A stretch of 64,000 nucleotides of DNA from Pseudomonadota bacterium (GTDB lineage: Bacteria; Bdellovibrionota_F; JAHFAK01; JBDREC01), in contig JBDREC010000030.1 in NCBI GenBank assembly GCA_043820105.1, positions 2,888 through 66,887 on the forward strand, written 5' to 3'. The number at the start of each line of letters is the position of its first letter. The first letter of the stretch is position 1. Positions 6,371 to 54,503 of the stretch are shown piece after piece. Under the pieces are notes generated by a model, which was not told where the DNA came from, did no database searches, and worked only from the letters and a program-made list of their open reading frames with translations. Both the position numbers and the translations under genes were made by a program.

Positions 6371-7099
6371 ATGAAAAATGAATTATTATTTATTTCAATA
6401 CTTGCTTTATCAATTATCTTTGTTTTTGGCTATGCCTTAAGCTCAGATGATGATAAATATGAGTATTCTGAAAGTATGAGTATTGATGCTAAAAACTTGG
6501 ATAAGATTGAAACCTTTTCCATTGATGGATCTTCTGGTGAATTTAATATTAAAACCTGGGATAAGAAATATATTGAGATAAAGCTTGTAAAAAAATCAGA
6601 AACAGAAGAGGGCTTAAAGAAAATTAAAATTTCAAGTGAAGCCAAGAAAGACAAATTTAAGTTAAAAATTGATATTGATACTAGTTTAAAAAAATCCTTA
6701 AATCAGCATGTAGAAATAAATGCAATGGTTCCTAAAAATATTAAACTTGAAATTAATGCAACTGCAGGAAGTATTAAAATTGAAGATTTTGAAGCAAATT
6801 TTAATATTGATTTAAATGCAGGGAGCGTAAAGTTTAAAAACCTTAAGCTTGCTAAAGAGGGAACTGATGTAATTGATCTTGATGCAGGAGAGGTTAAAAT
6901 TGATTTTAACAAAGATCTTCCTCCTTTTAAATTGGACGCCAAGGCTACTGTCGGAGGCATAAAAACAGGCCCAGGTTTTGCAGTAGAAGAAACAAGAGCA
7001 CATTTAATAGGTGGTCAATTAAAATTTTCTTATAATGATGGTACTAAAAAATTGAAAATAAATGTTGGGGCTGGGGGGATTAAGCTCGATAAAGCATGA
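6371..7099 (+). CDS. Secreted beta-repeat protein (DUF4097-like putative adhesin)
   Basis: Signal peptide followed by repeated I-K-I/V-x-x-x-x-G-x-I/V-K strands. An RBS GGGAG lies 9 nt upstream of the ATG. Confidence 0.55.
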   Translation: MKNELLFISILALSIIFVFGYALSSDDDKYEYSESMSIDAKNLDKIETFSIDGSSGEFNIKTWDKKYIEIKLVKKSETEEGLKKIKISSEAKKDKFKLKIDIDTSLKKSLNQHVEINAMVPKNIKLEINATAGSIKIEDFEANFNIDLNAGSVKFKNLKLAKEGTDVIDLDAGEVKIDFNKDLPPFKLDAKATVGGIKTGPGFAVEETRAHLIGGQLKFSYNDGTKKLKINVGAGGIKLDKA

Positions 7100-7275
7100 A
7101 ACGGAAATTGTGAAATGTGCGGCAAATATGTGTTTGAAAAATTGTATCGCACTTTTTTAAAACTATTCCAAATTCTAGAATTTGTTTCTTAATTTTAAAA
7201 AATCCATAAATAATATTATCAAACCCATTGATTTTATTCAATTCACGGTTCTGGCATTTGAATTGCATAGAATTA

Positions 7276-7330
7276 ATTCAAAATTCAAGATTCAAAATTC
7301 AAAATTAAGGATAAAAGTTGAAAGAGAAGA
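7276..7330. repeat. Left copy of ~45-bp direct repeat: (TTCAAAA/TTCAAGA)x4 followed by TTAAGGATAAAAGTTGAAAG
   Basis: Near-identical copy at 7672..7720. Contains the TTG start of the four-helix-bundle ORF. Confidence 0.8.
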
Positions 7331-7713
7331 ATTTAATTTTAGAGAAAACTTTTGGGTTTTCTATTATGATATATAAATTATACAAGGAATTAGTAATAAA
7401 GGAAAAAGAATATATTATTGCCAAGCAGGTTTTAAAAAGTGGTACATCAATAGGAGCGAATGTGAATGAGGCGCAGGCTGCGATGAGCAAGAAGGATTTT
7501 ATAGCAAAGCTTGAAATTGCATCCAAAGAAGCGAGAGAAACTCAATATTGGATAGATCTTTTAATAGCAGTTCAAATTGTTAATAAAGAAAATAAAGTAA
7601 TAAAAATAATTCATAATGAAATTATTGCTATTAATAAAATATTATCAAAAATCATCATAACAACAAAGAATAAGATTCAAGATTCAAGATTCAAAATTAA
7701 GAATAAAAGTTGA
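7318..7713 (+). CDS. Four-helix-bundle protein (23S rRNA intervening-sequence protein family, TIGR02436-like)
   Basis: TTG start. The motif LKSGTSIGANVNEAQ...SKKDFIAKLEIASKEARETQYWIDLL is the family hallmark. The start lies in the left copy and the stop in the right copy of a flanking direct repeat. Confidence 0.75.
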   Translation: MKEKNLILEKTFGFSIMIYKLYKELVIKEKEYIIAKQVLKSGTSIGANVNEAQAAMSKKDFIAKLEIASKEARETQYWIDLLIAVQIVNKENKVIKIIHNEIIAINKILSKIIITTKNKIQDSRFKIKNKS

Positions 7714-7758
7714 AATAAAAATTAATCTTGAATTTTGAATCTTGAATTTTGAATTAAT
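7672..7758. repeat. Right direct repeat copy (7672-7720) plus adjacent inverted heptamer array (7725-7758)
   Basis: AAGATTCAAGATTCAAGATTCAAAATTAAGAATAAAAGTTGAAAT, then TCTTGAATTTTGAATCTTGAATTTTGAATT, which is the reverse complement of the heptamer part. Contains the TGA stop of the four-helix-bundle ORF. Confidence 0.8.
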
Positions 7759-7775
7759 TTCCGGAGGAAATTACC

Positions 7776-9305
7776 ATGCTAGCAACCATAAAAACAGCCT
7801 CTCTTTATGGAATTGATGCTAGGATGATTGATGTTGAAGTTGATATTAGCGCAGGTTTTCCGGGCTATACAATTGTTGGACTAGCCGAAGGAGCCGCAAA
7901 GGAAAGCAAGGAAAGAGTTAAAACAGCTGTTAGAAATTGCGGATTTTCATTTCCTAAAGGTAGAATTACAATTAATTTAGCTCCTGCCTGGCTTAAAAAA
8001 GCAGAGTCTGCTTATGATTTGCCTATTGCTCTGGGCTTATTAATAGCCTCTAAGCAAGTTTTATCATTTATGCATCATGATTACATTGTTCTGGGAGAAA
8101 TCGGTTTGTCAGGGGAGTGCAAGGCTGTTAAGGGATGTTTAGTAGCAGTCAACGCAGGTAAAAATAATAATATTAAGCATGCAATTGTGCCAAAGGCAAA
8201 TGAAAAAGAAGCCTCTATTGTTGATGGAATTAAAGTTTTTGGAGCTAAGGATTTATATGATGCGATTGCTGCTTTAAATGGAAAGATAAAGCCTGCAAAA
8301 AAAGAAATTAGATCAGGATTAACAGAAGTAGAAATGGAATATAGCAGTGATTTTTCTGAAGTTAAGGGACAAGTAAAATTGAAAAGGGCTGTTGAAATAG
8401 CTGTTTCAGGAAATCATAATATACTTATGATTGGAAGTGCTGGCTGTGGAAAAACAATGATAGCCAAGCGTATTCCCACAATAATGCCACAAATGAGTTT
8501 TGCGGAAAGTTTAGAAACTACAAAAATTTATTCAATTGCAGGATTATTAAAATCAAAGGAAAGTTTGCTTTATGAAAGACCTTTCAGGTCTCCTCATCAT
8601 ACTATTTCAGATGTCGGAATAATTGGAGGCGGGCAGGGAATTCCAAGGCCTGGGGAGGTTTGTTTGGCAAACAACGGTGTTTTATTTCTTGATGAAATGC
8701 CTGAGTTTAAAAGGTCAGCAATAGAAGTATTAAGACAGCCGCTTGAAGATAAAAAAGTTTTTATAAATCGAGCATTAAATACAGTAAGCTATCCTGCCAA
8801 TTTTCTTTTGGTAGCTGCTATGAATCCATGCCCCTGTGGAAACCTGGGGGATGCTAAAAAAACATGTACCTGTTCAGCTGCTCAAGTTGCTAGATATTTC
8901 TTTAAAATATCATCTCCATTATTAGATAGGATTGATCTACACCTGGAAGTGCCTAGCATTAAATTTAAAGATTTAACTTCAAAAAGTTCTGAAGAAACTA
9001 GTGAAGTTGTTAAAAAGCGTGTTTGCAAGATTAGAAAAATACAAGCCAAGCGTTTTGAAAAAGAAAAAATACTTACAAATTCTGAAATGTTGCCAAAACA
9101 TCTTAATACCTTTTGTTATCTTGATAAAAAATCAAAAAGCCTTTTAAAAATAGCTGTTGATGAAAAGGGTTTTTCAGCGAGAGCTTATTCAAGAGTTATA
9201 AAGGTAGCTAGAACCATAGCAGATATGGAAGAATCAGATCTGATTATGCAGGAACATGTTGAAGAAGCTATTAATTATCGTATTCTTGATAAAATGGTTT
9301 TTTAG
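7776..9305 (+). CDS. comM: YifB/ComM family Mg-chelatase-like AAA+ ATPase
   Basis: N-terminal Lon-like domain, Walker A GSAGCGKT, and a C-terminal zinc-ribbon-like CPCG...CTC. RBS GGAGG upstream. Confidence 0.85.
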   Translation: MLATIKTASLYGIDARMIDVEVDISAGFPGYTIVGLAEGAAKESKERVKTAVRNCGFSFPKGRITINLAPAWLKKAESAYDLPIALGLLIASKQVLSFMHHDYIVLGEIGLSGECKAVKGCLVAVNAGKNNNIKHAIVPKANEKEASIVDGIKVFGAKDLYDAIAALNGKIKPAKKEIRSGLTEVEMEYSSDFSEVKGQVKLKRAVEIAVSGNHNILMIGSAGCGKTMIAKRIPTIMPQMSFAESLETTKIYSIAGLLKSKESLLYERPFRSPHHTISDVGIIGGGQGIPRPGEVCLANNGVLFLDEMPEFKRSAIEVLRQPLEDKKVFINRALNTVSYPANFLLVAAMNPCPCGNLGDAKKTCTCSAAQVARYFFKISSPLLDRIDLHLEVPSIKFKDLTSKSSEETSEVVKKRVCKIRKIQAKRFEKEKILTNSEMLPKHLNTFCYLDKKSKSLLKIAVDEKGFSARAYSRVIKVARTIADMEESDLIMQEHVEEAINYRILDKMVF

Positions 9306-14266: not shown

Positions 14267-14303
14267 AAATTCAAAACCCAAAATTCAAAATTCAAAATTA
14301 ATC
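14267..14303. repeat. Heptamer array (AAAATTC)x4 in the murA-prmC spacer
   Basis: AATTCAAAACCCAAAATTCAAAATTCAAAATTAATCCC. Confidence 0.85.
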
Positions 14304-19434: not shown

Positions 19435-19446
19435 TTTATACTTAAA

Positions 19447-19528
19447 AATTCAATTTCAAACTTGCAGTACAAAATTAAAACTTTTAATTGTAATTTTGAA
19501 TTTTGAATTTAAAATTTTGAATTTTTTT
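19447..19528. repeat. Heptamer arrays (TTTTGAA-type) downstream of the FAD oxidase gene
   Basis: TAATTTTGAATTTTGAATTTAAAATTTTGAATTTTTTTT, preceded by an AAAATTC-type stretch. Confidence 0.8.
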
Positions 19529-23150: not shown

Positions 23151-24617
23151 TTAATACAATAAATCAGAATTATTTATTTCTTTTGGTAGTTTATTCAGTA
23201 CCTGTTTCCACATTTTTTTATCTTCCATACAAAGATAAACAGGGCAATCCGGATAGTATGATTTGATTTTTCGTTCTAGTGCTTGAAAGGCTTTTATTCT
23301 TAAAGGTTCATAATAGCGATATTTACGATCACTGTGTAAAGTAAATTCACCTAAAGGCAAAACAGAGTTTTCAAAACGTTCATTAATAATATCTTTTAAT
23401 TTTGGATCAAAACGGAAACAACCCAAGGAAAGCCAAACAAGTTTTTTGACTTGAGATTTGGATTCAAAAATTGAAAATAGTTTATCAATTACATAAGAAT
23501 ATTCTTCTTCAAATCCAGGATAAATAACAATAGGATCAAAATGAAAGGCCAGCTTAAAACCATTCTGCAAGCATGCTTTGGCTGCATTTAACCGTTGCTC
23601 AAGACTTGCTGTATATAGCTCATCAGATTCAATTATTCTGTTTGTGTTTAAAGACCACGAAATAACAATATTTGAAGCATTTTTTTTATGTCTTAAAATA
23701 TTTTCAATATAATCAGATTTTGTTTTAAATTCAATTAAGCAAGAAGGATGATTTTTAGTTATTTTGATTAGTGAACTTGAATAATTAGTAATATGATCAG
23801 TTCCCAGGGAATCAGTTAAATTTCCTGGACCAACTCTTAAGAATTTATTTTTAAACTCAAGCTCCAGCTCTTTTTCAAGGTCAGCAAGATTCGTATAAAT
23901 TGCAATAGGTTTTAAGTTCAAATAATACTGCAAAATGCAATAAGAACAATCAAAAGGACAATTGCTGCCAATATCAAAATTATGATAGTTACAACAAATC
24001 ATTTTCTTTGTTCCAGGGCAACGCCTGGCAAATTTGCCCTTTGATCTTGTAAGGAAAATAGTTTTTTTGCCCTTTAAAATTGGATTTACTGATTCAGCAA
24101 AATAGTCTCGCCAAAAATCCAGAGTAGGCGATTCATTAGGCTCTATAACTTCGATGTTTTCTTTCTGAGCATACTTTAAGGCATTTTTAGCAATAAGGTC
24201 ATTGCACGATTTTGGATCGATTATAATAGTTTCTGGCACGAATTTTGGTCTATATTCTGTTTTGCATTTGGTGTTTAATTTTGAATTTTGAATTTTGAAT
24301 TTTGAATTTATTCCCTTATTCCCTGCAATTACTGGATACCTCCGCGCCCTCAGTCGTTTTTTCACTTCCTCAACAACATTACTATAATCTTTTTCTATAT
24401 TTCTAAATTCTATATCATCTATAATTTTTTCTCTTGTGATTTTCTCTCTTTTTCTAATCTCTTCAATTAGCTCTCCAATTAACAATATATTATTCACGCT
24501 AATTGGATATTTTGTTAGATCATCAAAAAAGTTTAATATACTAGAAAAATATTTTTCTGTTTTCCTTCTTTGTTTATCGGATGGATTTCTATCTTTAAAA
24601 TATTCGTATAAATTCAT
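23151..24617 (-). CDS. Radical SAM protein, spore-photoproduct-lyase (SplB)-like, with ~110-aa N-terminal extension
   Basis: CxxxCxxC motif CPFDCSYC followed by ILQYY. The N-terminal extension contains an in-frame (TTTTGAA)x5 array at 24276-24312, read as NSKFKIQNSKLN. Confidence 0.65.
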   Translation of the reverse strand: MNLYEYFKDRNPSDKQRRKTEKYFSSILNFFDDLTKYPISVNNILLIGELIEEIRKREKITREKIIDDIEFRNIEKDYSNVVEEVKKRLRARRYPVIAGNKGINSKFKIQNSKLNTKCKTEYRPKFVPETIIIDPKSCNDLIAKNALKYAQKENIEVIEPNESPTLDFWRDYFAESVNPILKGKKTIFLTRSKGKFARRCPGTKKMICCNYHNFDIGSNCPFDCSYCILQYYLNLKPIAIYTNLADLEKELELEFKNKFLRVGPGNLTDSLGTDHITNYSSSLIKITKNHPSCLIEFKTKSDYIENILRHKKNASNIVISWSLNTNRIIESDELYTASLEQRLNAAKACLQNGFKLAFHFDPIVIYPGFEEEYSYVIDKLFSIFESKSQVKKLVWLSLGCFRFDPKLKDIINERFENSVLPLGEFTLHSDRKYRYYEPLRIKAFQALERKIKSYYPDCPVYLCMEDKKMWKQVLNKLPKEINNSDLLY

Positions 24618-29048: not shown

Positions 29049-29708
29049 ATGAAATTATATTTTAAAATAATTCTATTTTTAATGATCACTGCAACTTTAT
29101 TTGCAGACAAAAATGAAGATGAAAAAACAATTAATGCATTATCAGATAAATTTTTTAAAATGAAAACATTGATTTGTGACTTTGAGCAGGTCTATTATAA
29201 TGCTAGTTTTGGAAATGATACAAAACCGCAAATTGGCAAACTGTACATTCAAAAGCCAGGTAAAATGAAGTGGGAATATTTAAAACCTGAAAAAAAAGAC
29301 ATTCTAAGCGACGGAAAAACCCTATGGGTTTATAGAAAGGATCAAAATCTATCTGTTTCTCAACCAGGCTTTGGTGAAATGAAAAATCAGACAGGCATGT
29401 CATTTTTATGGGGAAATGGAAAATTAAGAGATCAGTTCGATGTTAGTGTCAGCTCAGAAAGTGGAGAAAAAAATGAAATAGTGCTTGTTTTAACTCCAAA
29501 GGTTCCAAGCGCATCCATGGATTTTATTTATATGCTTATTGATAATAAAACCTATGATATAAAAAAACTGACTTTATATGACAAACAACGAAATGAAAAT
29601 AGATTTAAATTCAGCAACTTAAAGTATAACTCTAAAGTAGAAGTTGAATTTACTCCACCAAAGGATGCAAAGGAGTTTAAGACACCTGATATAAGTGGTA
29701 AGTCGTAA
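29049..29708 (+). CDS. lolA: Outer-membrane lipoprotein carrier protein LolA-like
   Basis: Signal peptide, then F-x-Q with spaced G/P/W pattern (FEQVYY...GKLYIQKPGKMKWEY...DGKTLWVY). Start moved to the Met at 29049 inside the ORF-track frame. Confidence 0.65.
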   Translation: MKLYFKIILFLMITATLFADKNEDEKTINALSDKFFKMKTLICDFEQVYYNASFGNDTKPQIGKLYIQKPGKMKWEYLKPEKKDILSDGKTLWVYRKDQNLSVSQPGFGEMKNQTGMSFLWGNGKLRDQFDVSVSSESGEKNEIVLVLTPKVPSASMDFIYMLIDNKTYDIKKLTLYDKQRNENRFKFSNLKYNSKVEVEFTPPKDAKEFKTPDISGKS

Positions 29709-29911
29709 GTGGTAAGTTGTAAGTGGTAAGTAGAGCAAGTTTTTTCCTGTGGAATCAATTTTAGCTCATTTTATTTCAATTTTCTTAATTATAATTATAA
29801 TCTTTATCCTTAAATTAGTTAGTAAATTAAACGACTTATCTCTATTTTTAAAAAATGGCACATCTATTGCATTTATTATCTTAAAAGTATTTTCAAGTAT
29901 AAGGAATAATA

Positions 29912-33423: not shown

Positions 33424-33933
33424 TTAGTCTTCTTGATTTATGAGTATTGATCCATCCTTGTATGCATCGCCTCCACCTGCCAAATCTCTTTTAATCAATT
33501 GCCAATATTTCGATTTTATTCCATCATCATCTAAATCTTGTTGTATTACTATTAAACAGGCTGTTGTTGGATCTAAAATATCTTCTTCACACTCAACTTT
33601 AGCGCCACCATATGTATCTTGGTCTGGAACAAAACCAATTATTTTAAATCCATTTGTATCGCCTGCAAATGCTGCCTGAGAACCTGCTTGCTTATCTCCG
33701 TTTAATAAATTTACATCCATTGTTGGCATTCCAAGTGGAATATGATGAAATTTTGCATTATCAATATTGTAGTCAGCTTCAGCAGCAAATATGCCGTTTA
33801 TAAGTGCGTTAACTTCTGACTTTTTAGACTTCTTGATATAAGCCATAAAACTTGGGATTGCGATTGCTGCCAAGATGCCGATAATGGCAACAACAATTAT
33901 TAGTTCAACTAGTGTAAAGCCTTTCTTTTTCAT
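33424..33933 (-). CDS. Type IV pilin / pseudopilin (prepilin N-terminal cleavage-methylation domain)
   Basis: [29 protein letters not shown], the canonical class III signal. No other pil genes nearby. Confidence 0.8.
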
Positions 33934-34192: not shown

Positions 34193-34218
34193 AGGGGGGG
34201 GGGGGGGGGGGCGGGGGG
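34193..34218. repeat. Homopolymeric tract G19-C-G6
   Basis: Counted directly. Extremely atypical for this AT-rich DNA. The paralogous module at 36038-36044 has only G7. Confidence 0.9.
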
Positions 34219-34265: not shown

Positions 34266-35510
34266 TTATTTTTTGCTAAAGAGCTTTTTAGCAACTTTTT
34301 GGTGATACTCTATAATATGCTTAATATCTCTATCAAAAAGATCAAGACTTTTTGCAAGTTTTTTAAATTGAGATATCGCACTTCTAACTTCATCTATTAT
34401 TGCTTTTTTATCATATTCTGAAATTTGAAAAAGTTTAGCCAGGTGATCAAGTTCTCTTATTGAAGGATTTTTTCCTTCACCTGCAATTGTCATTGAATGT
34501 TCACCACCCATGCCTTGTGAAAACATTAAATCATAAGCTGGAGCAAAAGACCAAGTTCCGTTTTTATTCATTAAAAAAGCAAAGTTTTTCACATGATCAT
34601 CCCTGTTAGAGGACAAAATGTTAAAAACCATTAATCTATAGCACATTTTAACTGATTCAAAATCATGTGTAAGTTTTGAGCAAACCTTTAAAAGGGTTTC
34701 ATAATCAACAGATGGCACCCTAAAATCAGCGTGTATTAAATTTCCAAAAGAGTGAAAATGAATTCTTTGATTTCCTTTTCTGTCAAATCTTTTAGTTCCA
34801 AAATAATAATTATTTTTATTATCTTGAAACAAGTGATATTCTGGAATTATAATGCCAGCAGCTTCTGCCATTTGTGAATAAATATACTCTATTTTTCCAG
34901 CTTCTAAAAAGTCGTTTTCAGATCTAAATTTTATCATCCATGCTTCATAATTTTTTGGTAGATCTGACTCTTTTGAAATTAAATCTTTACCATTAAATCC
35001 TACAAGAATTTTGGGTCTGGCTCCACCTGGAGATCCGCCAGTTCTAAAAAGGATGGGCAAAATATCTTTTTCATTTCCTTTTAAAATTTCAATTGAATTT
35101 TGAGAAAGCTCATATAGATTTACTGTTTCATTCTTTTTAAGTTTTAAATCCATAGCTGGTTCATAAGTTAAAGCCCCTATAGTCCTGTTAGCTACAAATA
35201 ACAATCTATCAATATGAGAAATTTCTCTTAAATCCAAGCCTTGTTTATTAAAAAAACGATCTTGTAATAAAAGCCCCCAACCATCTGGCATAGAATCATT
35301 AAATACACCATGAATATAACCTAAGAATGCTTTTTTACATACCTGAAGTCCCATACGACAATCAAGTTTGAATGGTGAAATGTTTATGTTTTTTGAAAGA
35401 AAATTTGAATCATATTCAAAATAAATTCTTTTTTTATTATCCTGAACAATTTGTCCCAATAGTGTCGAATCATTGGAAGAGGTAGTGTAGAAAACCTTTA
35501 CTTTTTTCAT
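34266..35510 (-). CDS. hipA: HipA-family Ser/Thr kinase toxin
   Basis: The N-terminal HipA coupling domain motif (PDGWGLLLQDRFF) and the catalytic region (DDHVKNFAFLM) are both present. 4-nt overlap with the upstream hipB-like gene. Confidence 0.8.
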   Translation of the reverse strand: MKKVKVFYTTSSNDSTLLGQIVQDNKKRIYFEYDSNFLSKNINISPFKLDCRMGLQVCKKAFLGYIHGVFNDSMPDGWGLLLQDRFFNKQGLDLREISHIDRLLFVANRTIGALTYEPAMDLKLKKNETVNLYELSQNSIEILKGNEKDILPILFRTGGSPGGARPKILVGFNGKDLISKESDLPKNYEAWMIKFRSENDFLEAGKIEYIYSQMAEAAGIIIPEYHLFQDNKNNYYFGTKRFDRKGNQRIHFHSFGNLIHADFRVPSVDYETLLKVCSKLTHDFESVKMCYRLMVFNILSSNRDDHVKNFAFLMNKNGTWSFAPAYDLMFSQGMGGEHSMTIAGEGKNPSIRELDHLAKLFQISEYDKKAIIDEVRSAISQFKKLAKSLDLFDRDIKHIIEYHQKVAKKLFSKK

Positions 35511-39965: not shown

Positions 39966-40008
39966 TATTACTTTTATTTTAATTTAAAATCCCAATCCAA
40001 TTGAACAT

Positions 40009-40126
40009 TACGCCGTACGCTGTACGCCGTACGCTGAAAGTAGTATTCTGTTTTTCTATTTACTGAATACCGAATACTAAATACTGAATACTAATCTTCC
40101 AGCTTACCACTTACAGCTTACAGCTT
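40009..40126. repeat. Three consecutive different heptamer arrays: (CCGTACG/CTGTACG)x4, (TACTGAA)x5, (CTTACCA/CTTACAG)x4
   Basis: Read directly in the spacer upstream of the phosphofructokinase gene. Confidence 0.85.
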
Positions 40127-40142: not shown

Positions 40143-41195
40143 ATGACAAAAAGAATTGGAATCTTAACAGGTGGAGGTGATTGCCCAGGTTTGAATGCAG
40201 TTATTAGAGCGATTGTTAGAAAAGGAATGTTACTTGGTTACGAAATGGTTGGAGTTATGGAAGGCTGGAGGGGAATGCTTGATAAAAAAACAGTTGTTCT
40301 TACTAGAAATATGATTTCTGGTATTTTACAAAAGGGTGGAACTATCCTTAAAACAACTAGAACTAATCCTTATAATACCGAAGATGGACCTAAGCTAGTT
40401 GCTAAAAACTTTCACGAAATGGGTTTCCATGCTTTAATAGCAATTGGTGGTGAAGATACTCTTGGCGTTGCGTCCAAATTATATGAGCAGGAAAAACTAA
40501 ATGTTGTTGGTGTTCCAAAAACAATTGATAATGACCTGTCAGGAACAGATCAAACCTTTGGTTTTGATACTGCAATCACTGTGGCTACTGATGCCATTGA
40601 CAGATTGCACACAACAGCTGAATCACATCAACGTGTCCTGGTCTGTGAAGTTATGGGCCGTCATGCAGGCTGGATAGCCGCGTATGCTGGCCTTGCTGGT
40701 GGTGCTGACTACATTCTCATTCCAGAAGTTCCGGTTGATGTTAATAAACTTTGTGAATCTATTGCAAAAAGACATAACCTGGGCAAAGACTTTTCAATTA
40801 TTGTTGTCTCAGAAGGCGCTAAATTAAGTGATGAAACATTAGGTGAAAATGGTCTTGTTCTGCAACATGGTAAAAAAGATGCTTTTGGACATGTAATTTT
40901 AGGTGGTATTGGAAAGACAATGTCAGATATAATTCAGGAAAAAACAGGCTATGAAACTAGATACACAATTCTAGGACATATTCAAAGAGGCGGCTCTCCA
41001 ACAGCTTATGACAGAGTGTTGGGAACAAGATATGGAATTCATGCAATGGAACTTGTTCACTCAGGTCAGTTTGGAAAAATGTCAGCTCTAAGAGGAAATG
41101 ACATTGTAGGAGTTGATCTTGCAAAGGCAACAGAAAGACTAAAAACAGTTCCTGTTGAGTTTTTTAGAGACAATATCGAAATCTTTTTTGAATAG
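40143..41195 (+). CDS. pfk: 6-phosphofructokinase, probably pyrophosphate-dependent
   Basis: PfkA-family fold (GILTGGGDCPGLNAVIRA). IGGEDT has Asp at the E. coli Gly104 position. VPKTIDNDL has Lys at the Gly124 position. This is the residue pair associated with PPi use. Confidence 0.8.
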   Translation: MTKRIGILTGGGDCPGLNAVIRAIVRKGMLLGYEMVGVMEGWRGMLDKKTVVLTRNMISGILQKGGTILKTTRTNPYNTEDGPKLVAKNFHEMGFHALIAIGGEDTLGVASKLYEQEKLNVVGVPKTIDNDLSGTDQTFGFDTAITVATDAIDRLHTTAESHQRVLVCEVMGRHAGWIAAYAGLAGGADYILIPEVPVDVNKLCESIAKRHNLGKDFSIIVVSEGAKLSDETLGENGLVLQHGKKDAFGHVILGGIGKTMSDIIQEKTGYETRYTILGHIQRGGSPTAYDRVLGTRYGIHAMELVHSGQFGKMSALRGNDIVGVDLAKATERLKTVPVEFFRDNIEIFFE

Positions 41196-41203
41196 ATAAA
41201 TAT

Positions 41204-41274
41204 GTACAGCGTACAGAGTACAGCGTACAGCGTGATTATCTTTTACGCCGTACGCTGTACGCCGTACGCTGTAC
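41204..41274. terminator. Long imperfect inverted repeat built from CGTACAG heptamers (29-nt arms, 13-nt loop) between pfk and deoB
   Basis: Left arm GTACAGCGTACAGAGTACAGCGTACAGCG. Right arm CGCCGTACGCTGTACGCCGTACGCTGTAC. Function as terminator or attenuator is inferred. Confidence 0.4.
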
Positions 41275-43803: not shown

Positions 43804-43980
43804 GTTTATTAATTTAAAATAATTCGCGACATTCAATACACAAGCAGTTAATTGCAACAAAAATATTGCCCCAAATTATCATTTAATTACATGTATTTAA
43901 AAAACGACCAAGCCATTGCCACGTGGCATCATTTTTGCATGCTTATTTTGCTAAATTTATTTTTCATTATAGGGCATTTT

Positions 43981-46900
43981 ATGAGACTAATTACTTTTTC
44001 ACTAAAGATAAAAAACTGTTTTTCTTATTTCTTAATTATAGCTGTTCAATTTTTGTTTATATTAGAATTAAGTTTATATGCTTCTTCAGAAAACTGTATG
44101 AGGCTTTTTTCAGATGAAAGAATTATTTCAACCCAAGATAGCCAGCAAGTAAATAAAGAAACCGCACAACAAGCATCTGCTAACTCACAAAGAAATTCTG
44201 CTAAAGATAAAATCATTTTTTCAATTAATGCTCCAAAGAGTATTTCGAATAAAGTAGAACTAGCTTCTGAAATGTTAGAAAGAGAAATGCAGGCAAATTA
44301 TGGATCATACTCATCAGAGCACCCAGTATTTAAATATGTTGAATCCATTTTAAAGGATATCTTTGCAGGTCTTGATGGAAAGCCTTTCAAGTTAATAGTA
44401 ACGAAAGGATGGGAAGAAGTAAATGCATGTGTTTTAGGCAATGGAACAATTATTTTTTCAGACAGATTACTAACTTTTTGTGAAACTGTAGAAGAGCTTC
44501 ATTTTATTTTAAGTCACGAAGTAATACATGCAAAAAAGCATCTCAAAGAATATGAAGACAAACAGGATACAACAGTTGGAACACTCTTAAAAGACTTCTA
44601 TCAAAACCTGTTTAGGGATAGAATGCAAGAGTATGAAGCAGATATTAGAGGTTTTACAGAAGGGTCGGGTTCAAGTGATTCAATTATTAATCCTTATGGA
44701 GGGATTGTTTTTTTTAATCGCTTAATGGAAATTGAAAGATCTTCTAAAAGCAAATATAATCGCAGCTTTAATTATGGTCTTACTCATGGTAGAAGTGCAG
44801 ATAGGCTTTTAAACCTTCACTTTGCAACAAGATTAGTTGATATTGACAATCTCTCAAGAGATTTGACTGTAATTCCTGATGAAATAAGAGACAAACTAGA
44901 TTTTCGAAGGTCTTTAGAAAAAGAAATATTGAAACCATTGGAAGTTAAATCAGGAGAAGATCTAAGTAATATTATTTCTGCAAGAGAAGCAGCTTTGGAA
45001 AAAGCTAATTTTTATATATTAAAAAATGCAGTGTCCATTTTATATAAGAGATATATGGATAAATATTCATCAAGGAGAACTGCCAGTGATAGTGATAATT
45101 TTTTAGAACCAATTGAAAAAGAGTTTTTACTTAAAACTCTTAATGCCTTTAAAAAAGAAATCGATATAATTTTAGAAGAAAAAAAGGTTCCAGTTTTTTT
45201 AAGGCCCTTATTCCGTGGAATAATAATTGCTTTAAGTTCTGATTTGCCAATAGAAGATGCAAGACCAATGCTTGATGGCTCTGACCCGGAAAATGCATTA
45301 GCCTGTTTTAGAGATTTTTTTGATTATTTTGAAGATAAGGCTGACTACCTTGATTTGCCTGATAATTTGGAAGAATTTGCAAAACTTGATTTGCCTCTTA
45401 CAAATAAACCAAAAGAACTCCTGCAATTTTTGATAAATGAATCTTTAGATGAGGAAATTTTTAGTGATAATCAGGGCAATTTTGACCTTGGACTATATAG
45501 AGACTATGTGCGCAGGCTAAGTGAGTCAACAAAGAAACTTTATGATAAAGTTGGATTAACTAAAGATATAGATTCAAATATGCTTTATGCAGAACTTTTG
45601 CCTTATGCTTTATTAAACTATTCAAGAGATGAAATGAATCAAGTTGCCCAGGATCTTATCTTAGATGTTGGTGAAAATATGAATGATTTTTATGAAGCAG
45701 CCAGAAAGGATGTGGAAATTCCCGAGAAAGTATTAGATAAAGCAAAAAAGAATTTAGAGGAAAGTGATAATAAAAAAGATATATCACCAAAAAGAAAAGA
45801 GTTTTTGGATATAGCAATGGAATACCTTAATAGCTTTAGAGACTTTATAAAGAATCCTCCAGAGGAATTTGAATCAGAATTTATAGCGGAATCTGCTTTT
45901 ATTGAAAATCATAGCAAAACATTTATAAGTAAAATAGATTCATTTGCATGGAAAACTCAAGAAGAAGTAATTATAGCATTAACAAAATTATTCAGAGAAG
46001 ATCTCAATAAAGAAGACATTAGAAAAGTTGTAAAGCTAATATTTGAATGCCCGGACTTTTTCTCAAGTAAAAGATCTTATATTGATGAGAATATGAGTCC
46101 AGTAGGTAAGGCTGCATTTTTAGTTAGAATATTAAGATTCTGTTTTGATTTTGATGAGTTTGGCTCCCTTGTTGGACACAAGGCTTCAATTCCAGATTTT
46201 CTTAACAATGGTTTTAGCTTTACTAGCAGATGGGAATATATTGATAAAAGAACAAATAATGCAGAAATTAAAGAACTCTATAAAATGCTTTTTCATAATA
46301 TAGAATCTATTAATGATCTTAAAGCTACAGAAACAAAAAAAGACGAAGCAATAGAAGATTCATATAATCAAATATATTTTGCTTATTTAGATTACTTGAG
46401 CAAAGAAAAAAATATAGAAGAGTTTAGAATATTATTTGATGATATAATAGATATTGCTCCTAGAAATAGCACTGAGTTTTTAGAATTTCAATTAACAGCA
46501 GCAGCATCTATTTTTGAAAATTATGATTTTGATTTTTCTAATCCTGAGCATTTAGACCTTTATATAAAAGCATGTTCTTTGGTTCCAGATAGTGTACTTG
46601 CTTCGCAGTTAGTTGAAAATGGTCTGGAAAAAGCTTTTGATTATCTGGATAACAAAACACTTGAAAATTATTTATTTCAAGATGAAAGGCTTGCTTTTTT
46701 ATCATTAACAAAAATTAGATCTAGATACATAAATGAGCGTATCCGATCAGTTGAACATCTTGACAGAGCTTTAGAAAAAATCGCCTCAGCCTCTATTCCA
46801 AAACAGCAATCAATACAAGAAAGGGGAGGCAAAGCTTTAATAGGAAATGAAATATTGGATATCTTAATTAATGACCCATTTAATTTTCTCAAAATCGCAA

Positions 46901-48675
46901 TTTTTGAAAGACATTCAGACATGAAGCTTAAAACAGCCTTACTAAATGCCTATCTTTTTTATGTTGAAAATATTGTGCATTTGGGTGGTAACCCTGCAGA
47001 CAGAAGAACAGAAGAAGATTTTATTGGTTTTGCAAGCCATTATGAAAGAATGTTTTCTTTAGATAATGTCACAAAACATAATATTTTAAAAAAATTATTA
47101 ATTGGAGAAAATGGTGTCTTAAGAAATGAAAGTAAGAAGCTAGAAATGCTTGAGCTTATATTGGAAGTTCTAGTCAGAGAAGGAAAAACAGATGCAGAGA
47201 GCAGGCTACGCTCAATATTGAGCATTGGTTTAAAATCCATTGCAATGCAGGCAGATGATATTTCATTATATTTTTTCATAGCAAACTTTTTACATGATCA
47301 AATGTTTATAAGACCTGAAAGTGAAAGCTCTTGGGTTGATGTACTGATTGAATCAGATGTTTTCAAAGATTATAGCAGAGAGTATTACAAAAAAGAAGAA
47401 CTTGAAGAACTTGCTAAACCAATTGCCAATGCTATTAGTAGCTCTCCAAGTGCTAAACATGACAGTTATATTTTTTATGAAGGATCTAGTCCAAATTTAG
47501 ATCTTTTAAGAAGAAATCTTTTTGATAAAGCTTCAAGATACTTGCCAAGCATAGAAGGAGGTGAAAAGAAAAATTACTCGCCAGTTGAATTCATTGTTGA
47601 AGTAGCAAGCAACTTATATGCACCAGGTAAAAGAGCATTACAAATAATGGGACAATATCTAGAGATCCCTGAAGAGTTTGAAGAAGATTTTTCAAAGGTC
47701 TATGATGCAATGGAAGGTCAGTCTAAGTTATCAGGCTATCACACCTTGAAAAGAAACTGGGAAGGTTCAGAAGAAGAGCTTCTTGATTTTGGTTTATATG
47801 AAGGGGGTGGCTCTTTGGTAACAGTGTGGAAGGCAGAAACAAAAAGAAATGGTACTGAAGTTTTAAGAGTGCTAAACCCTAATGTAGAATATCACATGCA
47901 AGAGATATGTGATATTTTAGAAGAAGCTTTTAGGAAGCTAGAAGCAGAATATCCTGATGCAAGACTTGCAGTACTTGCAGTTAATGATATAAGAGAGTGG
48001 ATAAGACGAGATATTAATGACCAAAACTTTTGGGATAATGATGTAATTTTTCATGATTTACACCATGGGTTTTCTGCACCTGGTTCTGGGTTTAGTATTT
48101 ATATCCCAAAGTCTTATGAACCAAGATCTGCTAAAGTAAAAAGAGAAGAATATATTGAGGGCATAAATCTAACAAGATGGCAAGGCACAGAAGAAGAAAG
48201 AAAAGATATAGTAAGTTCAATTGTAGTAAATTTTATTTATCAAATTGGAAATGGCTTAGTTTTATCTGATATTCATCCCGGTAATATTAGAATTATGAAT
48301 GGCAATAAAATTGCCTATCTTGACAGGAATCTTTATATTGAAATCACAGGAGCAGAAAAGGACTTATTATCATCTGTTATAACTGGACAAGAATTAATAA
48401 TTATTGATACTTTTACTTCATATTTACAGGAAATACCTGAAAACAGAAACATTAATGTTCAGGCAATCCTTGAAAATGCAGTCTTAGCATCTTCAAACAT
48501 TAATGACCCAACAAAAAGATTTTTAGATATCCTGGTAAAGGTAAAATCTTCAAATATCAAAGTACCCTTAAAAATTACCTTATTAATTAAAAATGCTTTA
48601 GCTCTAAATAAAATGTCTAAAAAAGCAGGCTTTAATAGTTTAGTTGAAGCAGCAATGTATCCACATACAAGATAG
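43981..48675 (+). CDS. Giant membrane-anchored multidomain protein: M48-like HExxH peptidase domain, long helical region, C-terminal UbiB/ABC1-like atypical kinase domain
   Basis: N-terminal hydrophobic helices. VNACVLGNGTIIFSDRLL...ELHFILSHEVIHAKKH is the M48/M56 pattern. The C-terminus has a Gly-rich loop EGGGSLVTVWKAE, DIHPGNIRI (compare ABC1 DPHPGNI) and a YLDRN DFG-like motif. Start moved to the Met at 43981 (MRLITFSL). Confidence 0.65.
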   Translation: MRLITFSLKIKNCFSYFLIIAVQFLFILELSLYASSENCMRLFSDERIISTQDSQQVNKETAQQASANSQRNSAKDKIIFSINAPKSISNKVELASEMLEREMQANYGSYSSEHPVFKYVESILKDIFAGLDGKPFKLIVTKGWEEVNACVLGNGTIIFSDRLLTFCETVEELHFILSHEVIHAKKHLKEYEDKQDTTVGTLLKDFYQNLFRDRMQEYEADIRGFTEGSGSSDSIINPYGGIVFFNRLMEIERSSKSKYNRSFNYGLTHGRSADRLLNLHFATRLVDIDNLSRDLTVIPDEIRDKLDFRRSLEKEILKPLEVKSGEDLSNIISAREAALEKANFYILKNAVSILYKRYMDKYSSRRTASDSDNFLEPIEKEFLLKTLNAFKKEIDIILEEKKVPVFLRPLFRGIIIALSSDLPIEDARPMLDGSDPENALACFRDFFDYFEDKADYLDLPDNLEEFAKLDLPLTNKPKELLQFLINESLDEEIFSDNQGNFDLGLYRDYVRRLSESTKKLYDKVGLTKDIDSNMLYAELLPYALLNYSRDEMNQVAQDLILDVGENMNDFYEAARKDVEIPEKVLDKAKKNLEESDNKKDISPKRKEFLDIAMEYLNSFRDFIKNPPEEFESEFIAESAFIENHSKTFISKIDSFAWKTQEEVIIALTKLFREDLNKEDIRKVVKLIFECPDFFSSKRSYIDENMSPVGKAAFLVRILRFCFDFDEFGSLVGHKASIPDFLNNGFSFTSRWEYIDKRTNNAEIKELYKMLFHNIESINDLKATETKKDEAIEDSYNQIYFAYLDYLSKEKNIEEFRILFDDIIDIAPRNSTEFLEFQLTAAASIFENYDFDFSNPEHLDLYIKACSLVPDSVLASQLVENGLEKAFDYLDNKTLENYLFQDERLAFLSLTKIRSRYINERIRSVEHLDRALEKIASASIPKQQSIQERGGKALIGNEILDILINDPFNFLKIAIFERHSDMKLKTALLNAYLFYVENIVHLGGNPADRRTEEDFIGFASHYERMFSLDNVTKHNILKKLLIGENGVLRNESKKLEMLELILEVLVREGKTDAESRLRSILSIGLKSIAMQADDISLYFFIANFLHDQMFIRPESESSWVDVLIESDVFKDYSREYYKKEELEELAKPIANAISSSPSAKHDSYIFYEGSSPNLDLLRRNLFDKASRYLPSIEGGEKKNYSPVEFIVEVASNLYAPGKRALQIMGQYLEIPEEFEEDFSKVYDAMEGQSKLSGYHTLKRNWEGSEEELLDFGLYEGGGSLVTVWKAETKRNGTEVLRVLNPNVEYHMQEICDILEEAFRKLEAEYPDARLAVLAVNDIREWIRRDINDQNFWDNDVIFHDLHHGFSAPGSGFSIYIPKSYEPRSAKVKREEYIEGINLTRWQGTEEERKDIVSSIVVNFIYQIGNGLVLSDIHPGNIRIMNGNKIAYLDRNLYIEITGAEKDLLSSVITGQELIIIDTFTSYLQEIPENRNINVQAILENAVLASSNINDPTKRFLDILVKVKSSNIKVPLKITLLIKNALALNKMSKKAGFNSLVEAAMYPHTR

Positions 48676-50420: not shown

Positions 50421-50446
50421 AATTCAAAATTCAAAATTCAAAATTA
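50421..50446. repeat. Heptamer array (AATTCAA)x3.5 between the membrane-protein gene and the HAD hydrolase gene
   Basis: AATTCAAAATTCAAAATTCAAAATTA. Confidence 0.85.
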
Positions 50447-51221: not shown

Positions 51222-51257
51222 CTAATTAATTCAAAATTTAAAATTCATAGTCCAAAA

Positions 51258-52700
51258 TCAAAGAATATATCTACTCAAATCTTCATCCTTCGCCAAATCA
51301 TCAAGTCTTTCTTTAACATAACCCTTAGTGATCTCTATGGTCTGCGCCGGCAAATCCGGGGCCTCAAATGAAATCTCATCAAAGATTTTTTCCATGACAG
51401 TATGCAGTCTTCTTGCTCCAATGTTTTCAGTTTTTTCATTAACATATTCAGCTATTTCTGAAATTTCTGCAACTGCTTCATCTGTAAATTGAATATCAAT
51501 GTCTTCAGTTTTCATCATCTCCACATACTGTTTTGTTAAAGAATTTTCAGGCTCAGTTAGAATTCTTTGAAAATCATTTTTAGTAAGCCTATTGAGCTCA
51601 ACTCTTATTGGAAATCTTCCTTGAAGTTCTGGAATAAGATCTGATGGTTTTGATATATGAAAAGCACCAGAGGCTACAAAAAGGATATGGTCTGTTTTAA
51701 TCATGCCATATTTAGTCATTACATTGGAACCCTCGACTATTGGCAGAATATCTCTTTGTACACCCTGTCTGGAAACATCAGGCCCTTGTTTAGAGCCTTG
51801 GCTTGCAATTTTGTCAATCTCATCTAAAAAGATAATACCAGAATTCTCAGCTCTTTTTACAGCTTCCTTGGAAACCTTATCCATATCCATTAAACGATTG
51901 ATTTCATCATTAATGATTATTTCACGAGCCTCTTTGATTTTCATCTTCCGTCTTTTGCTTTTTTTAGGAAACATATTTCCTAAAGCTTCTTGCATATTCA
52001 TTTGCATATCATCTGGAATCTGACCAGAAAAAATTTCAATTGAAGGAATTGATTTTGATTTAGTCTCAATTTCAATTTCTTTTTCTTCAAGCTTTTCTTC
52101 ATCAAGCAGTAGTTTTAATTTTTCACGGCTTTCTGATTTTTTTTCTTCCTCTTCTTGAAGTCTTTGCTCTTTTAATACATCACCTAGATCAGGTTGACTA
52201 TCCTGATTCATTCGATCAAAGTGTGTATTTCTTGAAAAAGGAGGTTTCATGCGAGGTTTAGCAGGAGTGGGTAGTAATAAATCAAGCAGCTTTTCTTGCG
52301 CATTTATTTTAGCTTTTTCATAAAGCCTTTCTCTTTCTTCTGCTTTAACCATATTAACACTTATTTGGACAAGGTCTCTGACCATTGATTCAACATCTTT
52401 GCCCACATATCCAATTTCAGTAAACTTTGAAGCCTCTACTTTAATAAATGGCGCTTGGGCGAGCTTAGCTAGCCTTCGTGCTATTTCAGTTTTTCCAACA
52501 CCTGTTGGTCCAATCATGATGATGTTCTTTGGTGTAATTTCATCACGCATATCTTCAGAAACGTTTTGTCTTCTCCATCTATTTCTAAGAGCAATGGCTA
52601 CTGCACGTTTTGCTTTATCCTGTCCAATAATATATCGATCAAGCTGAGCTACGACTTCTTTTGGAGTTAAAGTTAGTTTATTTTCCATTAAATTCTCCAT
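51258..52700 (-). CDS. hslU: ATP-dependent protease ATPase subunit HslU (CodX-like)
   Basis: [34 protein letters not shown] plus Walker [16 protein letters not shown]. Confidence 0.9.
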
Positions 52701-52776
52701 ATTTTTTATTAAGTGATTAAAAGCAAATAAAATGTAAATTGTAAAAACTACTTACCACTTACCACTTACCACTTAT

Positions 52777-53316
52777 TTATAATTCTTCTACTACAATATT
52801 ATAATTTGTAAAAACACAAATATCTGCAGCGACTTTTAAAGACTTTTCAGCTATTTCTTTAGCTGATAAATCAGTATTTTCTTTTAAAGCTCTGGCAGCA
52901 GCCAGTGCAAAGGATCCGCCTGATCCTATTGCAGCGATTCCATCATCAGGTTCAATGACATCGCCTCTACCTGATAAGGTTAATATTGTTTCATCATTTG
53001 CAACAATCATTAAAGCTTCTAATTGCCTTAAGAATTTATCTGATCTCCATTCTTTAGCTAGCTCAACAGAAGCTCTTGTAATATTACCGTTGTATTCTTC
53101 GAGCTTTGCTGAAAACTTATCAAATAAAGTAAAGGCATCAGCTGTTGCTCCAGCAAAACCTGCAATCACTTTATCATTAAAAAGTCTTCTAACTTTCCTG
53201 GCAGTAGCTTTCATTATTGTATTTTGCAAACTTACTTGCCCATCACCTGCCAAAGCAACTTTTCCATCTTTTTGCACAGCTAAAATGGTTGTTGCGTGAA
53301 ATGTTATTTCTGACAT
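52777..53316 (-). CDS. hslV: ATP-dependent protease subunit HslV, CodW-type (N-terminal Ser plus 5-residue extension)
   Basis: [14 protein letters not shown] closely parallels Bacillus CodW (MSSFHATTIFAV). Strong similarity continues through [26 protein letters not shown]. Confidence 0.9.
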
Positions 53317-53331
53317 GTTCTCTCCATTTTT

Positions 53332-53361
53332 GTTGCTGGTTGCTGGTTGCTAGTTGCTGGT
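53332..53361. repeat. Heptamer array (GTTGCTG)x4
   Basis: Read directly in the hslV upstream spacer. Confidence 0.85.
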
Positions 53362-53432
53362 GAAAAAACCTATCACATAATAACAAACAAGCAGCAATCC
53401 AAATTTATCTAAGTGTTTGAATTTGGTTTTCT

Positions 53433-53468
53433 ACCACTTACCACTTACCACTTACCACTTACCACTTA
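53433..53468. repeat. Heptamer array (CTTACCA)x5
   Basis: Read directly. The same unit recurs at 52749-52776, 40096-40126 and, as its complement, at 29693-29731. Confidence 0.85.
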
Positions 53469-53469
53469 A

Positions 53470-54378
53470 TTACGCTTTTGGGTGTGTCCTATCATATTCT
53501 TCAATCAACTTATTAACACTTACTTTAGTATAACGTTGAGTTGTGGATAACATTGAATGTCCCAAAAGCTCTTGAATACTTCTTAAGTCAACCCCTGAAT
53601 CTAAAAGATGAGTTGCAAAGGTGTGTCTAAAAACGTGAGGTGTAACTTTTTTTTGGATTCCATTTCTTTTTAAATACTTATCAATTATTCTTGAAATTCC
53701 TTTTTGAGAAATTCTATTTTTACTTTTATTCAAAAATAAAGGTTTAGAATCATTGGAAACAGAATTATAATCAATACCTACAATATCAAGATATCTTGTC
53801 ATTGCAAACTTTGCTTTATTTCCAAATAAGACGATTCTTTCTTTGTTACCTTTACCAATTAATCGAATACATTTATCATTAAAATCTACATTACTTGTAT
53901 TTAACGAAACAAGCTCACTTACTCTCACACCAGATGCGTATAAAAGTTCAAGTATAGCTCGATCTCTTAATTCTTGCCATGAATCACCATTTGCTGATTC
54001 GATTAAAGTGAATACCTCATCAACTGACATAGTTAATGGTAGATATTTTTTTCTTTTAGGTGTAGCAACATTTTTTGCAATATTTTCTTTTACCTTACCT
54101 TCCGTTTTCATGTAAGTCATAAAGCTTCTTAAGCTTGCTATTTTCCTTGCTAAAGTTGTGCTTGAATTTTTGTTATATAAATAAGCTAAAAAAGCTCTGA
54201 TATGTTGAACTGAAATTATATTTAAATCAAAGGGATCATTAAATGATTTAAGAATTTTTTGCTCAAGTAAGAATCTTGAAAAATCTTCTAAGTCATTTGA
54301 ATAGTTCCTTAGTGTATGACTTGAATAGTGTTTAACATTTTTTAAATATTCAATGAAATCTTTGATATGCTTTTTCAT
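53470..54378 (-). CDS. xerC: Tyrosine recombinase XerC/CodV
   Basis: C-terminal catalytic box HVFRHTFATHLLDSGVDLRSIQELLGHSMLSTTQRYTKV. Sits upstream of hslVU as in the Bacillus codVWX arrangement. Confidence 0.85.
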   Translation of the reverse strand: MKKHIKDFIEYLKNVKHYSSHTLRNYSNDLEDFSRFLLEQKILKSFNDPFDLNIISVQHIRAFLAYLYNKNSSTTLARKIASLRSFMTYMKTEGKVKENIAKNVATPKRKKYLPLTMSVDEVFTLIESANGDSWQELRDRAILELLYASGVRVSELVSLNTSNVDFNDKCIRLIGKGNKERIVLFGNKAKFAMTRYLDIVGIDYNSVSNDSKPLFLNKSKNRISQKGISRIIDKYLKRNGIQKKVTPHVFRHTFATHLLDSGVDLRSIQELLGHSMLSTTQRYTKVSVNKLIEEYDRTHPKA

Positions 54379-54503
54379 TTATAAATAATTTCGTTTGCTT
54401 AAGTTATTAATAAATAAGTATTGTTTTGGTGTTTGTCAAGGTGTAGTGAACATATTAAATTTTGAATTTTGAATTTTAGATTTTGGATTATGGTTTTAGA
54501 CAG

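Follow-up and report, generated by a model that had tools for sequence, protein, structure and literature searches.

The window, a 64,000-nucleotide stretch of contig JBDREC010000030.1 from a Pseudomonadota metagenome-assembled genome (MAG), carries at 7271-7759 a gene for a four-helix-bundle (4HB) protein of the "23S IVS protein" family (IVS, intervening sequence), enclosed by inverted arrays of tandem heptamers. The locus is probably a non-rRNA, IVS-type 4HB cassette, i.e. a promoter-less, AT-rich gene placed in the comM leader in the sense direction, with inverted arrays of about 4-5 heptamers around it. It is ordinary within its family: inverted heptamer arms were found at many homologous loci, and the analysis suggests a link between 4HB genes and the heptamer repeats of bacterial genomes. 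A search of the accessible literature found no paper tying PF05635 genes to heptamer arrays beyond a note on the Coxiella IVS, and both the family-wide heptamer-arm architecture and its tie to heptameric simple sequence repeats (SSRs) appear not to have been described before.

The 4HB gene and its repeats

The features discussed in this section are:

7271-7308, + strand: left arm, L; about 4.6 tandem heptamers ATTCAAR, one half of a 38-nt inverted repeat
7280-7328, + strand: left copy of a 49-nt direct repeat; heptamers, then AATTAAGGATAAAAG, then TTGAAAG, including a Shine-Dalgarno (SD)-like AAGGA and the TTG start
7318-7713, + strand: 4HB protein gene; 131 aa, domain at about residues 4-116, last 15 residues from the R1 array
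7672-7720, + strand: right copy of the direct repeat, R1; putative duplicate of the left end, with heptamers, a degraded SD (AAGAA) and TTGAAA, holding the TGA at 7711-7713
7672-7759, + strand: ORF-less mini-element hairpin R1-R2; array, SD and start remnant, inverted array
7722-7759, - strand: right arm, R2; inverted heptamer array
7776-9305, + strand: downstream gene, an Mg-chelatase-like ATPase of the yifB/comM family
about 19444-19525, - strand: degenerate second mini hairpin; AATTCAA array plus the leader segment TAAAAGTT, aligning to R1-loop-R2

The strongest repeat at the locus is the inverted one (7271-7308 and 7722-7759; 38 nt, 97% complementary), which has the whole ORF inside. The direct repeat (7280-7328 and 7672-7720) spans 49 nt and is 90% identical. 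L, R1 and R2 are each made up by about 4.6 ATTCAAR units, a pattern that, as a run of three units, was counted 22 times across the window, chance predicting 0.07. The heptamers of L end 10 nt before the TTG start codon (7318-7320), which lies within the left direct-repeat copy and is preceded at 7 nt by the AAGGA motif (7306-7310); an in-frame stop is found two codons 5' of it. The TGA stop (7711-7713) resides within R1, where it overlaps the duplicated TTG, and the C-terminal 15 residues of the product, KNKIQDSRFKIKNKS, are the R1 heptamer array translated in frame. The original prediction had placed the start in the left repeat, the stop in the right one and an inverted copy after the latter, and all these coordinates were confirmed. 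The non-heptamer part of the direct repeat, the 21-nt AATTAAGRATAAAAGTTGAAA, occurs at positions 7303 and 7695 of the window only, and is absent from the 161 loci searched. No target-site duplication was seen at the outer flanks (7270/7760; CATAG on the left, TCCGG on the right).

The protein belongs to the family to which it had been assigned by eye. When the profiles were run, both PF05635 (E 3.1e-21, 76 bits vs. a cut-off of 33.8, profile positions 2-105 of 106) and TIGR02436 (E 3e-26, 91.8 bits vs. a cut-off of 24) matched above cut-off. BT_0352 (PDB 2RLD) is 47% identical (E 2.7e-29), and the invariant columns of the conserved core motifs GTSIGAN..EA and KEARE..YW are kept. An AlphaFold2 model built on 28 homologues has four helices (pLDDT 92.8), and its Foldseek matches include 2RLD (TM-score 0.94) and XCC0516 (2GSC; 0.85). 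Avd, the accessory protein of diversity-generating retroelements (DGRs), matches at about 0.75-0.79 overall, with 4DWL at 0.79 and chains of the DGR ribonucleoprotein structures 8UB7 and 8UBE included. Homologues mostly measure about 120-122 aa, some 132-137 aa. The window protein is basic (pI 9.77; family median 9.26) and, by analogy with the relatives 2RLD and 2GSC, each with five chains in the PDB entry, is probably pentameric. An identical protein is found in NCBI as MFH1727777.1 ("four helix bundle protein", Pseudomonadota MAG). No paralogue was found in the window by tblastn.

R2 has a choice of two partners, L (38 bp) and R1 (29-33 bp, loop of 14-21 nt). In the minimum free energy fold of 7255-7775 L pairs with R2, and a stem of about 38 bp, covering 3 nt of the SD, is closed around the ORF (-94.9 kcal/mol, z -3.2). 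The local R1:R2 hairpin, with a 14-nt loop, scores -31.9 kcal/mol (z -6.6), and gave in Rfam only sub-threshold matches to miRNA-like hairpins.

Judged by its content (array, SD and start codon), the direct repeat is a duplicated left end, and R1-loop-R2 looks like the element minus its ORF. The hairpin at 19444-19525 folds at -16 kcal/mol (z -2.95). A further mini occurs in homologue locus L144 (4268-4336), in the intergenic spacer next to that of the gene, and has kept the two arms together with the initial 8 nt of the ORF (ATGAATGA) and the end of the ORF near the stop. The three-array layout is found in a minority of homologue loci (L106, L135, L149, L163), and direct repeats alone in few, such as L148. 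The order L-gene-R1-loop-R2 is just what would arise if a circle bearing the gene had integrated, by one crossover, into the left arm of a mini lacking the ORF; alternatively, an in-place duplication may have copied the left end. Were L and R1 to recombine, 392 bp would be lost and a mini hairpin would stay behind, the junction reading GCATAGAATTAATTC flank, hybrid L/R1, AAATAAAAATTAATC. Excision by this route is plausible.

Inverted heptamer arrays at homologous loci

Eighty metagenome loci with homologues (42-63% identity) were fetched. Flanks long enough on both sides for scoring were available in 68 cases, 67 homologue loci and the window locus. The score was the best ungapped inverted repeat between upstream and downstream flank, and mismatched locus pairs were used as null (mean 9.9, 95th percentile 15.5, maximum 22). 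Inverted arms exceed the 95th percentile of the null in 40/68 loci and its maximum in about 20/68, while direct-repeat flanks rise over the null in about 7/68 only. Inverted heptamer arrays, not direct repeats, therefore define the family. The self-contained cassette of the original prediction survives in that gene and repeats behave as a unit, repeat-flanked homologues are common, and ORF-less derivatives with start or stop remnants are found; the direct repeats, on which it had been built, are not the defining ones.

Period 7 was found in 90% of the inverted arms. Units vary by locus (AATTACG, AATTAAG/AATTAGG, AATTATG, AATTGAG, AATGTTG, AATTCAA), and the upstream and downstream arrays of a locus are reverse complements of each other. 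The upstream arm ends at a median of 7.5 nt before the start codon, and the downstream arm begins at a median of 2 nt before the ORF end, the stop codon often lying within the array. Array length is narrowly distributed (median 4.4 units, interquartile range 3.9-4.9), few arrays exceeding 6 units. Arrays of period 7 reach 2.08/kb beside the gene vs. 0.10/kb in the rest of the same loci, a 20-fold difference; in unrelated comM loci, 1.3 Mb in all, a background of 0.014/kb was measured. Periods 5, 6 and 8-10 are essentially absent from the homologue loci. In locus L149 (1-700) the arms show a higher order of repetition: a spacer and 3-4 copies of AATTACG, about 41 nt together, recur as a unit at least 4 times upstream and, as reverse complement, 2-3 times downstream, which indicates that whole arms can be amplified.

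Homology to rRNA is absent from all 80 homologue loci. The prediction had correctly set the window gene in a non-rRNA intergenic spacer beside comM (TIGR00368, E 7.5e-178), and had taken this site for an exception; it is the norm. Homologues lie on the same strand as the upstream neighbour in a 56:7 ratio, as the downstream neighbour in a 61:3 ratio. Both neighbours are on the strand of the gene in 44 loci, both on the opposite strand in none, and median gaps to the neighbours are 37 and 35.5 nt. Homologues are tight sense insertions within operons, and the orientation bias shows dependence on host transcription. Operon-internal examples reside between wzm and wzt, between two adenylylsulfate (APS) kinase genes in Hydrogenimonas thermophila, at a junction upstream of a nucleoside triphosphate (NTP) transferase gene, and between accB and accC. 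The last site is occupied in sense orientation by XCC0516-type genes in both Xanthomonas campestris and Dyella (L182 2424-2873, L186 2479-2916), flanked by GGGAATC/GGGAATA upstream and GATTCCC/TATTCCC downstream, which is the unit of the genome-wide Xanthomonas SSR. The insertion between accB and accC appears to be old and stably kept.

In 55/59 loci the ORF has a lower GC content than the host; the mean difference is 7.8 points, and the largest is seen for an ORF of 0.36 in a host of 0.57. The same cassette, with the same unit, was found in hosts with a GC content of 0.36 and of 0.57. The dN/dS ratio, 0.06-0.23, denotes purifying selection on the protein, and on this ground the 4HB ORF of the window looks functional. 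Proteins flanked by the same unit are 60.7% identical on average, those flanked by different units 54.2%, a difference reached in 0/2000 permutations; protein identity falls monotonically with the distance between heptamer units, and the unit is kept in pairs whose synonymous sites are saturated. As the unit tracks the protein clade and persists at synonymous saturation, gene and arrays make up one unit in inheritance and in transfer between widely differing hosts. The resemblance of distant arrays to the unit at the gene flanks is modest (mean distance 2.06 vs. 2.48, p about 0.02).

Mobility was also sought through identical proteins in several contexts, and the three cases available (P0032, P0089, P0093) each occur in a single context. 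Carriage by phages was discarded as well, one relative only being found in 2.9 million viral contigs. In locus L037 (5942-6406) inverted AAGTGAA and TTCACTC arrays bracket about 400 nt devoid of ORFs of at least 60 aa and featuring GC-rich internal palindromes (CCTCCGCCCCCTTGGGGGAGGG ... CCCTCCCCCAAGGGGGCGGAG); this stretch may represent an element without ORF from a different family, or else a structured RNA.

Heptamer arrays and genes elsewhere in the window

Under one detection rule the window contains 16 arrays of period 7 and none of periods 4-6 or 8-12, and Markov shuffles contain none. The arrays are located in intergenic spacers or gene ends, nearly all at operon junctions, have a median length of 4.6 copies, and fall into about five unit families, TACGCCG, ACTTACC, GTTGCTG and TTTGGTA being the units found besides that of the 4HB gene. 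The source is a heptamer-repeat genome of the kind found in cyanobacteria and Xanthomonas, with a MAG GC content of 31%. AATTCAA forms six more arrays in the window and is thus a dispersed repeat family of about 35 nt, to which the following belong:

14267-14299, + strand: solo AATTCAA array
24277-24309 (region 24272-24311), - strand: AATTCAA array inside the mechanically called ORF 23151-24617
50421-50445, + strand: AATTCAA array
51228-51262, + strand: AATTCAA array
54458-54489, - strand: AATTCAA array

In ORF 23151-24617 the spore-photoproduct-lyase domain begins only at residue 126. The true start of this ORF is probably downstream of its AATTCAA array, the listed frame being over-extended.

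Besides the 4HB gene, pfk, hslV and a gene for a HAD hydrolase are each flanked by arrays that share a unit with one another. The layout made of three arrays seen at the 4HB gene is found again around pfk (40143-41195), where TACGCCG/TACGCTG units form a perfect 29-nt direct repeat (40008-40036 and 41243-41271) and an inverted array (41204-41232) gives a hairpin of -50 kcal/mol (z -8.4); two further heptamer arrays, TACTGAA and CTTACAG, lie in the pfk leader. At hslV (52777-53316, - strand; region 52747-53472) ACTTACC arrays flank the gene as a 33-nt direct repeat, 94% identical, and a GTTGCTG array lies between them. The reverse complement of ACTTACC is present also at 29692-29731, after lolA. 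The delimitation by repeats, to which the original prediction had drawn attention, is real at the 4HB gene; since pfk and hslV are likewise delimited, it is not specific to this gene in the window.

The 4HB locus lies in a non-rRNA intergenic spacer between a 242-aa ORF and comM, in an ordinary chromosomal neighborhood (aroA, prfA, prmC, murJ, pfk, hslVU, thiC, htpG). The SD of comM (GGAGG) begins 4 nt past R2, which places the cassette within the comM leader, in sense orientation. Among GTDB representative genomes the best match to ComM is about 50% identical, none being closer. Neither a reverse transcriptase nor a transposase was found among the window genes scanned. A putative hairpin 3' of the upstream gene is no better than shuffled sequences (z -0.67).

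Two further observations concern genes distant from the locus. A run of 25 G, one C within, occupies 34194-34218, in the spacer between a pilin-like gene (33424-33933, - strand) and hipA (34266-35510, - strand), and could serve phase variation or be an error of the assembly. A 1607-aa ORF (43852-48675) features a weak M48 peptidase match at residues 171-229 and an ABC1 atypical-kinase domain at residues 1320-1511, and has no Pfam match over most of its length.

Models for the locus and comparison with known systems

If the locus is an IVS-type cassette, L and R2 would pair in the read-through transcript to form a long double-stranded RNA stem exactly around the ORF. By analogy with the Coxiella 23S IVS, RNase III would cut this stem, so that the 4HB mRNA would be separated from that of comM and a transcribed unit could tolerate the insertion. 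Elements of this class would spread horizontally. Four sets of data weigh against this model. No inverted repeat over the null was found in 28/68 loci. Mismatches in the arms (32 G.U-compatible, 59 A.C, 146 other) carry no wobble signature of pairing in the sense RNA, so that it may be in the DNA, or through concerted evolution, that complementarity is maintained. XCC0516 occupies the accB-accC junction in Xanthomonas and Dyella alike, a constant position indicating that some copies are long-term residents, not active mobile elements. Lastly, the presence of the same layout at pfk may mean that it reflects the dynamics of arrays in the genome at large, not the biology of a cassette.

The main rival of the IVS-type model holds that the arrays are binding sites of the 4HB protein, a basic homopentamer contacting about five tandem heptamers in RNA or DNA; it may be entertained tentatively. 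Arrays around the gene would mediate autoregulation by covering the ribosome-binding site, and dispersed arrays of the same unit would be a regulon, or be propagated by the protein. The tight limit on array length, the five chains of both 2RLD and 2GSC, the basic pI values, the structural matches to Avd chains of DGR ribonucleoprotein reverse transcriptases, and a unit which tracks the protein clade and outlasts the saturation of synonymous sites are all in line with binding. So are the finding that the unit flanking the 4HB gene is the commonest dispersed unit in the window, and that GGGAATC, which flanks XCC0516, is scattered in the Xanthomonas genome as 186 arrays (PMC4692102). Yet many dispersed arrays in the same genomes have unrelated units (TACGCCG, ACTTACC and GTTGCTG in the window), and the distant arrays match the flanking unit only modestly. 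The association of clade and unit is explained by co-inheritance alone, and the agreement between pentamer and five units could be a coincidence, since an equal length would follow from a stem of about 30 bp. The broader proposal is more speculative still: PF05635 proteins might be the trans-acting partners of bacterial heptamer arrays. Each 4HB gene would have its own cognate arrays as inverted arms, and the arrays dispersed in the genome with that unit, AATTCAA in the window and GGGAATC in Xanthomonas, would be targets of the protein or products of its activity.

The arrays could also be terminal inverted repeats of a DNA transposon-like element, mobilized by a recombinase encoded elsewhere; minis would then correspond to MITEs (small transposable elements with inverted repeats), and the 4HB protein to cargo or an accessory function. 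This is rather unlikely. The close enclosure of the ORF by inverted repeats, the minis at other intergenic sites, the GC content below that of the host and the recurrence of one cassette and unit in hosts of 0.36 and 0.57 GC are as expected for such an element, and the lack of wobble bias in the arms fits a symmetry kept in DNA. The missing target-site duplication at 7270/7760 and the lack of a transposase or reverse transcriptase among the scanned genes speak against it. Moreover, a sense bias of 44:0 is unexpected for a cut-and-paste element, and variable numbers of tandem units are unusual in terminal inverted repeats.

It is improbable that there is no cassette at all, and that a stable resident gene is surrounded by the abundant intergenic heptamer SSRs of its genome, spread locally by slippage or gene conversion. 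The 16 arrays of period 7 with no other period, the arrays around pfk, hslV and the HAD hydrolase gene, and the documented over-representation of heptamer SSRs in bacteria (PMC4692102, PMC4679880) would be accounted for. Against it, the direct repeat includes 21 nt of non-heptamer sequence, with the SD and the start codon, found elsewhere neither in the window nor in the 161 loci; in unrelated metagenomes arrays are 20 times denser next to 4HB homologues, and they accompany the gene in hosts that differ widely in GC content.

That the R1-R2 hairpin is a terminator or attenuator of read-through into comM, with L:R2 as anti-terminator, has as little in its favor. In its favor are the two mutually exclusive pairings of R2 and a distance of 17 nt from the end of the hairpin to the comM start; but the hairpin lacks a U-tract after it, a search for terminator-like sites in 7050-7850 called none, and the three-array layout is confined to a minority of homologues, and is not therefore a general function of the family. 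Three candidates were rejected for want of defining parts: a DGR accessory (Avd) setting, no reverse transcriptase domain being present among the window genes scanned (template and variable repeats were not searched for); an insertion sequence or MITE, inverted repeats being present, but neither a target-site duplication nor, among the genes scanned, a transposase; and an integron gene cassette, GTTGAAA lying in the hairpin loop and not in a paired core, and the sole tyrosine recombinase, xerC-like, residing 46 kb away beside hslVU.

Two puzzles have been around for decades. One is the role of the "23S IVS protein" family, which has thousands of members and solved structures, and a function assigned only for the Avd of DGRs; the other is why bacteria over-represent intergenic heptamer repeats of about 4 units. 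The window locus and its relatives put both in one physical unit (inverted arrays around a gene, oriented with host transcription, a unit inherited with the clade), and thereby open both to direct test. They also show the IVS of rRNA to be one particular form of a far commoner element, which inserts within operons.

The Coxiella 23S IVS (428 nt) has a terminal inverted-repeat stem of 28 bp cut by RNase III, carries 2-3 tandem GACAGAT heptamers directly upstream of the S23p start, and its ORF is thought not to be expressed (PMC4990558). As in the IVS of Coxiella and Leptospira, a PF05635 ORF of about 120 aa is enclosed by a stem (28 bp in Coxiella, 38 bp in the window). Tandem heptamers just upstream of the ORF start, a GC content below that of the host and a sense orientation within a transcribed unit are further traits shared with Coxiella. 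In contrast to the 23S IVS, which occupy the helix 25 or helix 45 site, the window gene lies between protein-coding genes, in the comM leader and not in rRNA. It also differs from the Coxiella IVS in having an extra direct copy of the left end, hence the three-array layout, and an ORF that looks functional.

PF05635 is the Avd-like family of DGRs, and its genes have been reported between cas genes and in 16S and 23S insertions of bacteria of the candidate phyla radiation (CPR). The window protein shares with Avd the four-helix-bundle fold (TM-score 0.79 to 4DWL); identity is only about 16%, and a flanking heptamer hairpin is not a feature of DGRs. BT_0352 (2RLD) and XCC0516 (2GSC) are close in both sequence and structure. 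Heptamer repeats of cyanobacteria are known as STRR. Heptameric SSRs are over-represented in bacteria, and both Nostoc and Beggiatoaceae (TAACTGA) have units of their own (PMC4692102, PMC4679880). In Xanthomonas the GGGAATC arrays are intergenic, mostly consist of 4 units and form 70 convergent inverted pairs (PMC4692102). The arrays described here resemble these SSRs in being intergenic, often within operons, made up mostly by about 4 units, frequently arranged in convergent inverted pairs, and present as several unit families per genome. They differ because the window arrays enclose a 4HB gene, the SSR reports (PMC4692102, PMC4679880) making no link to PF05635.

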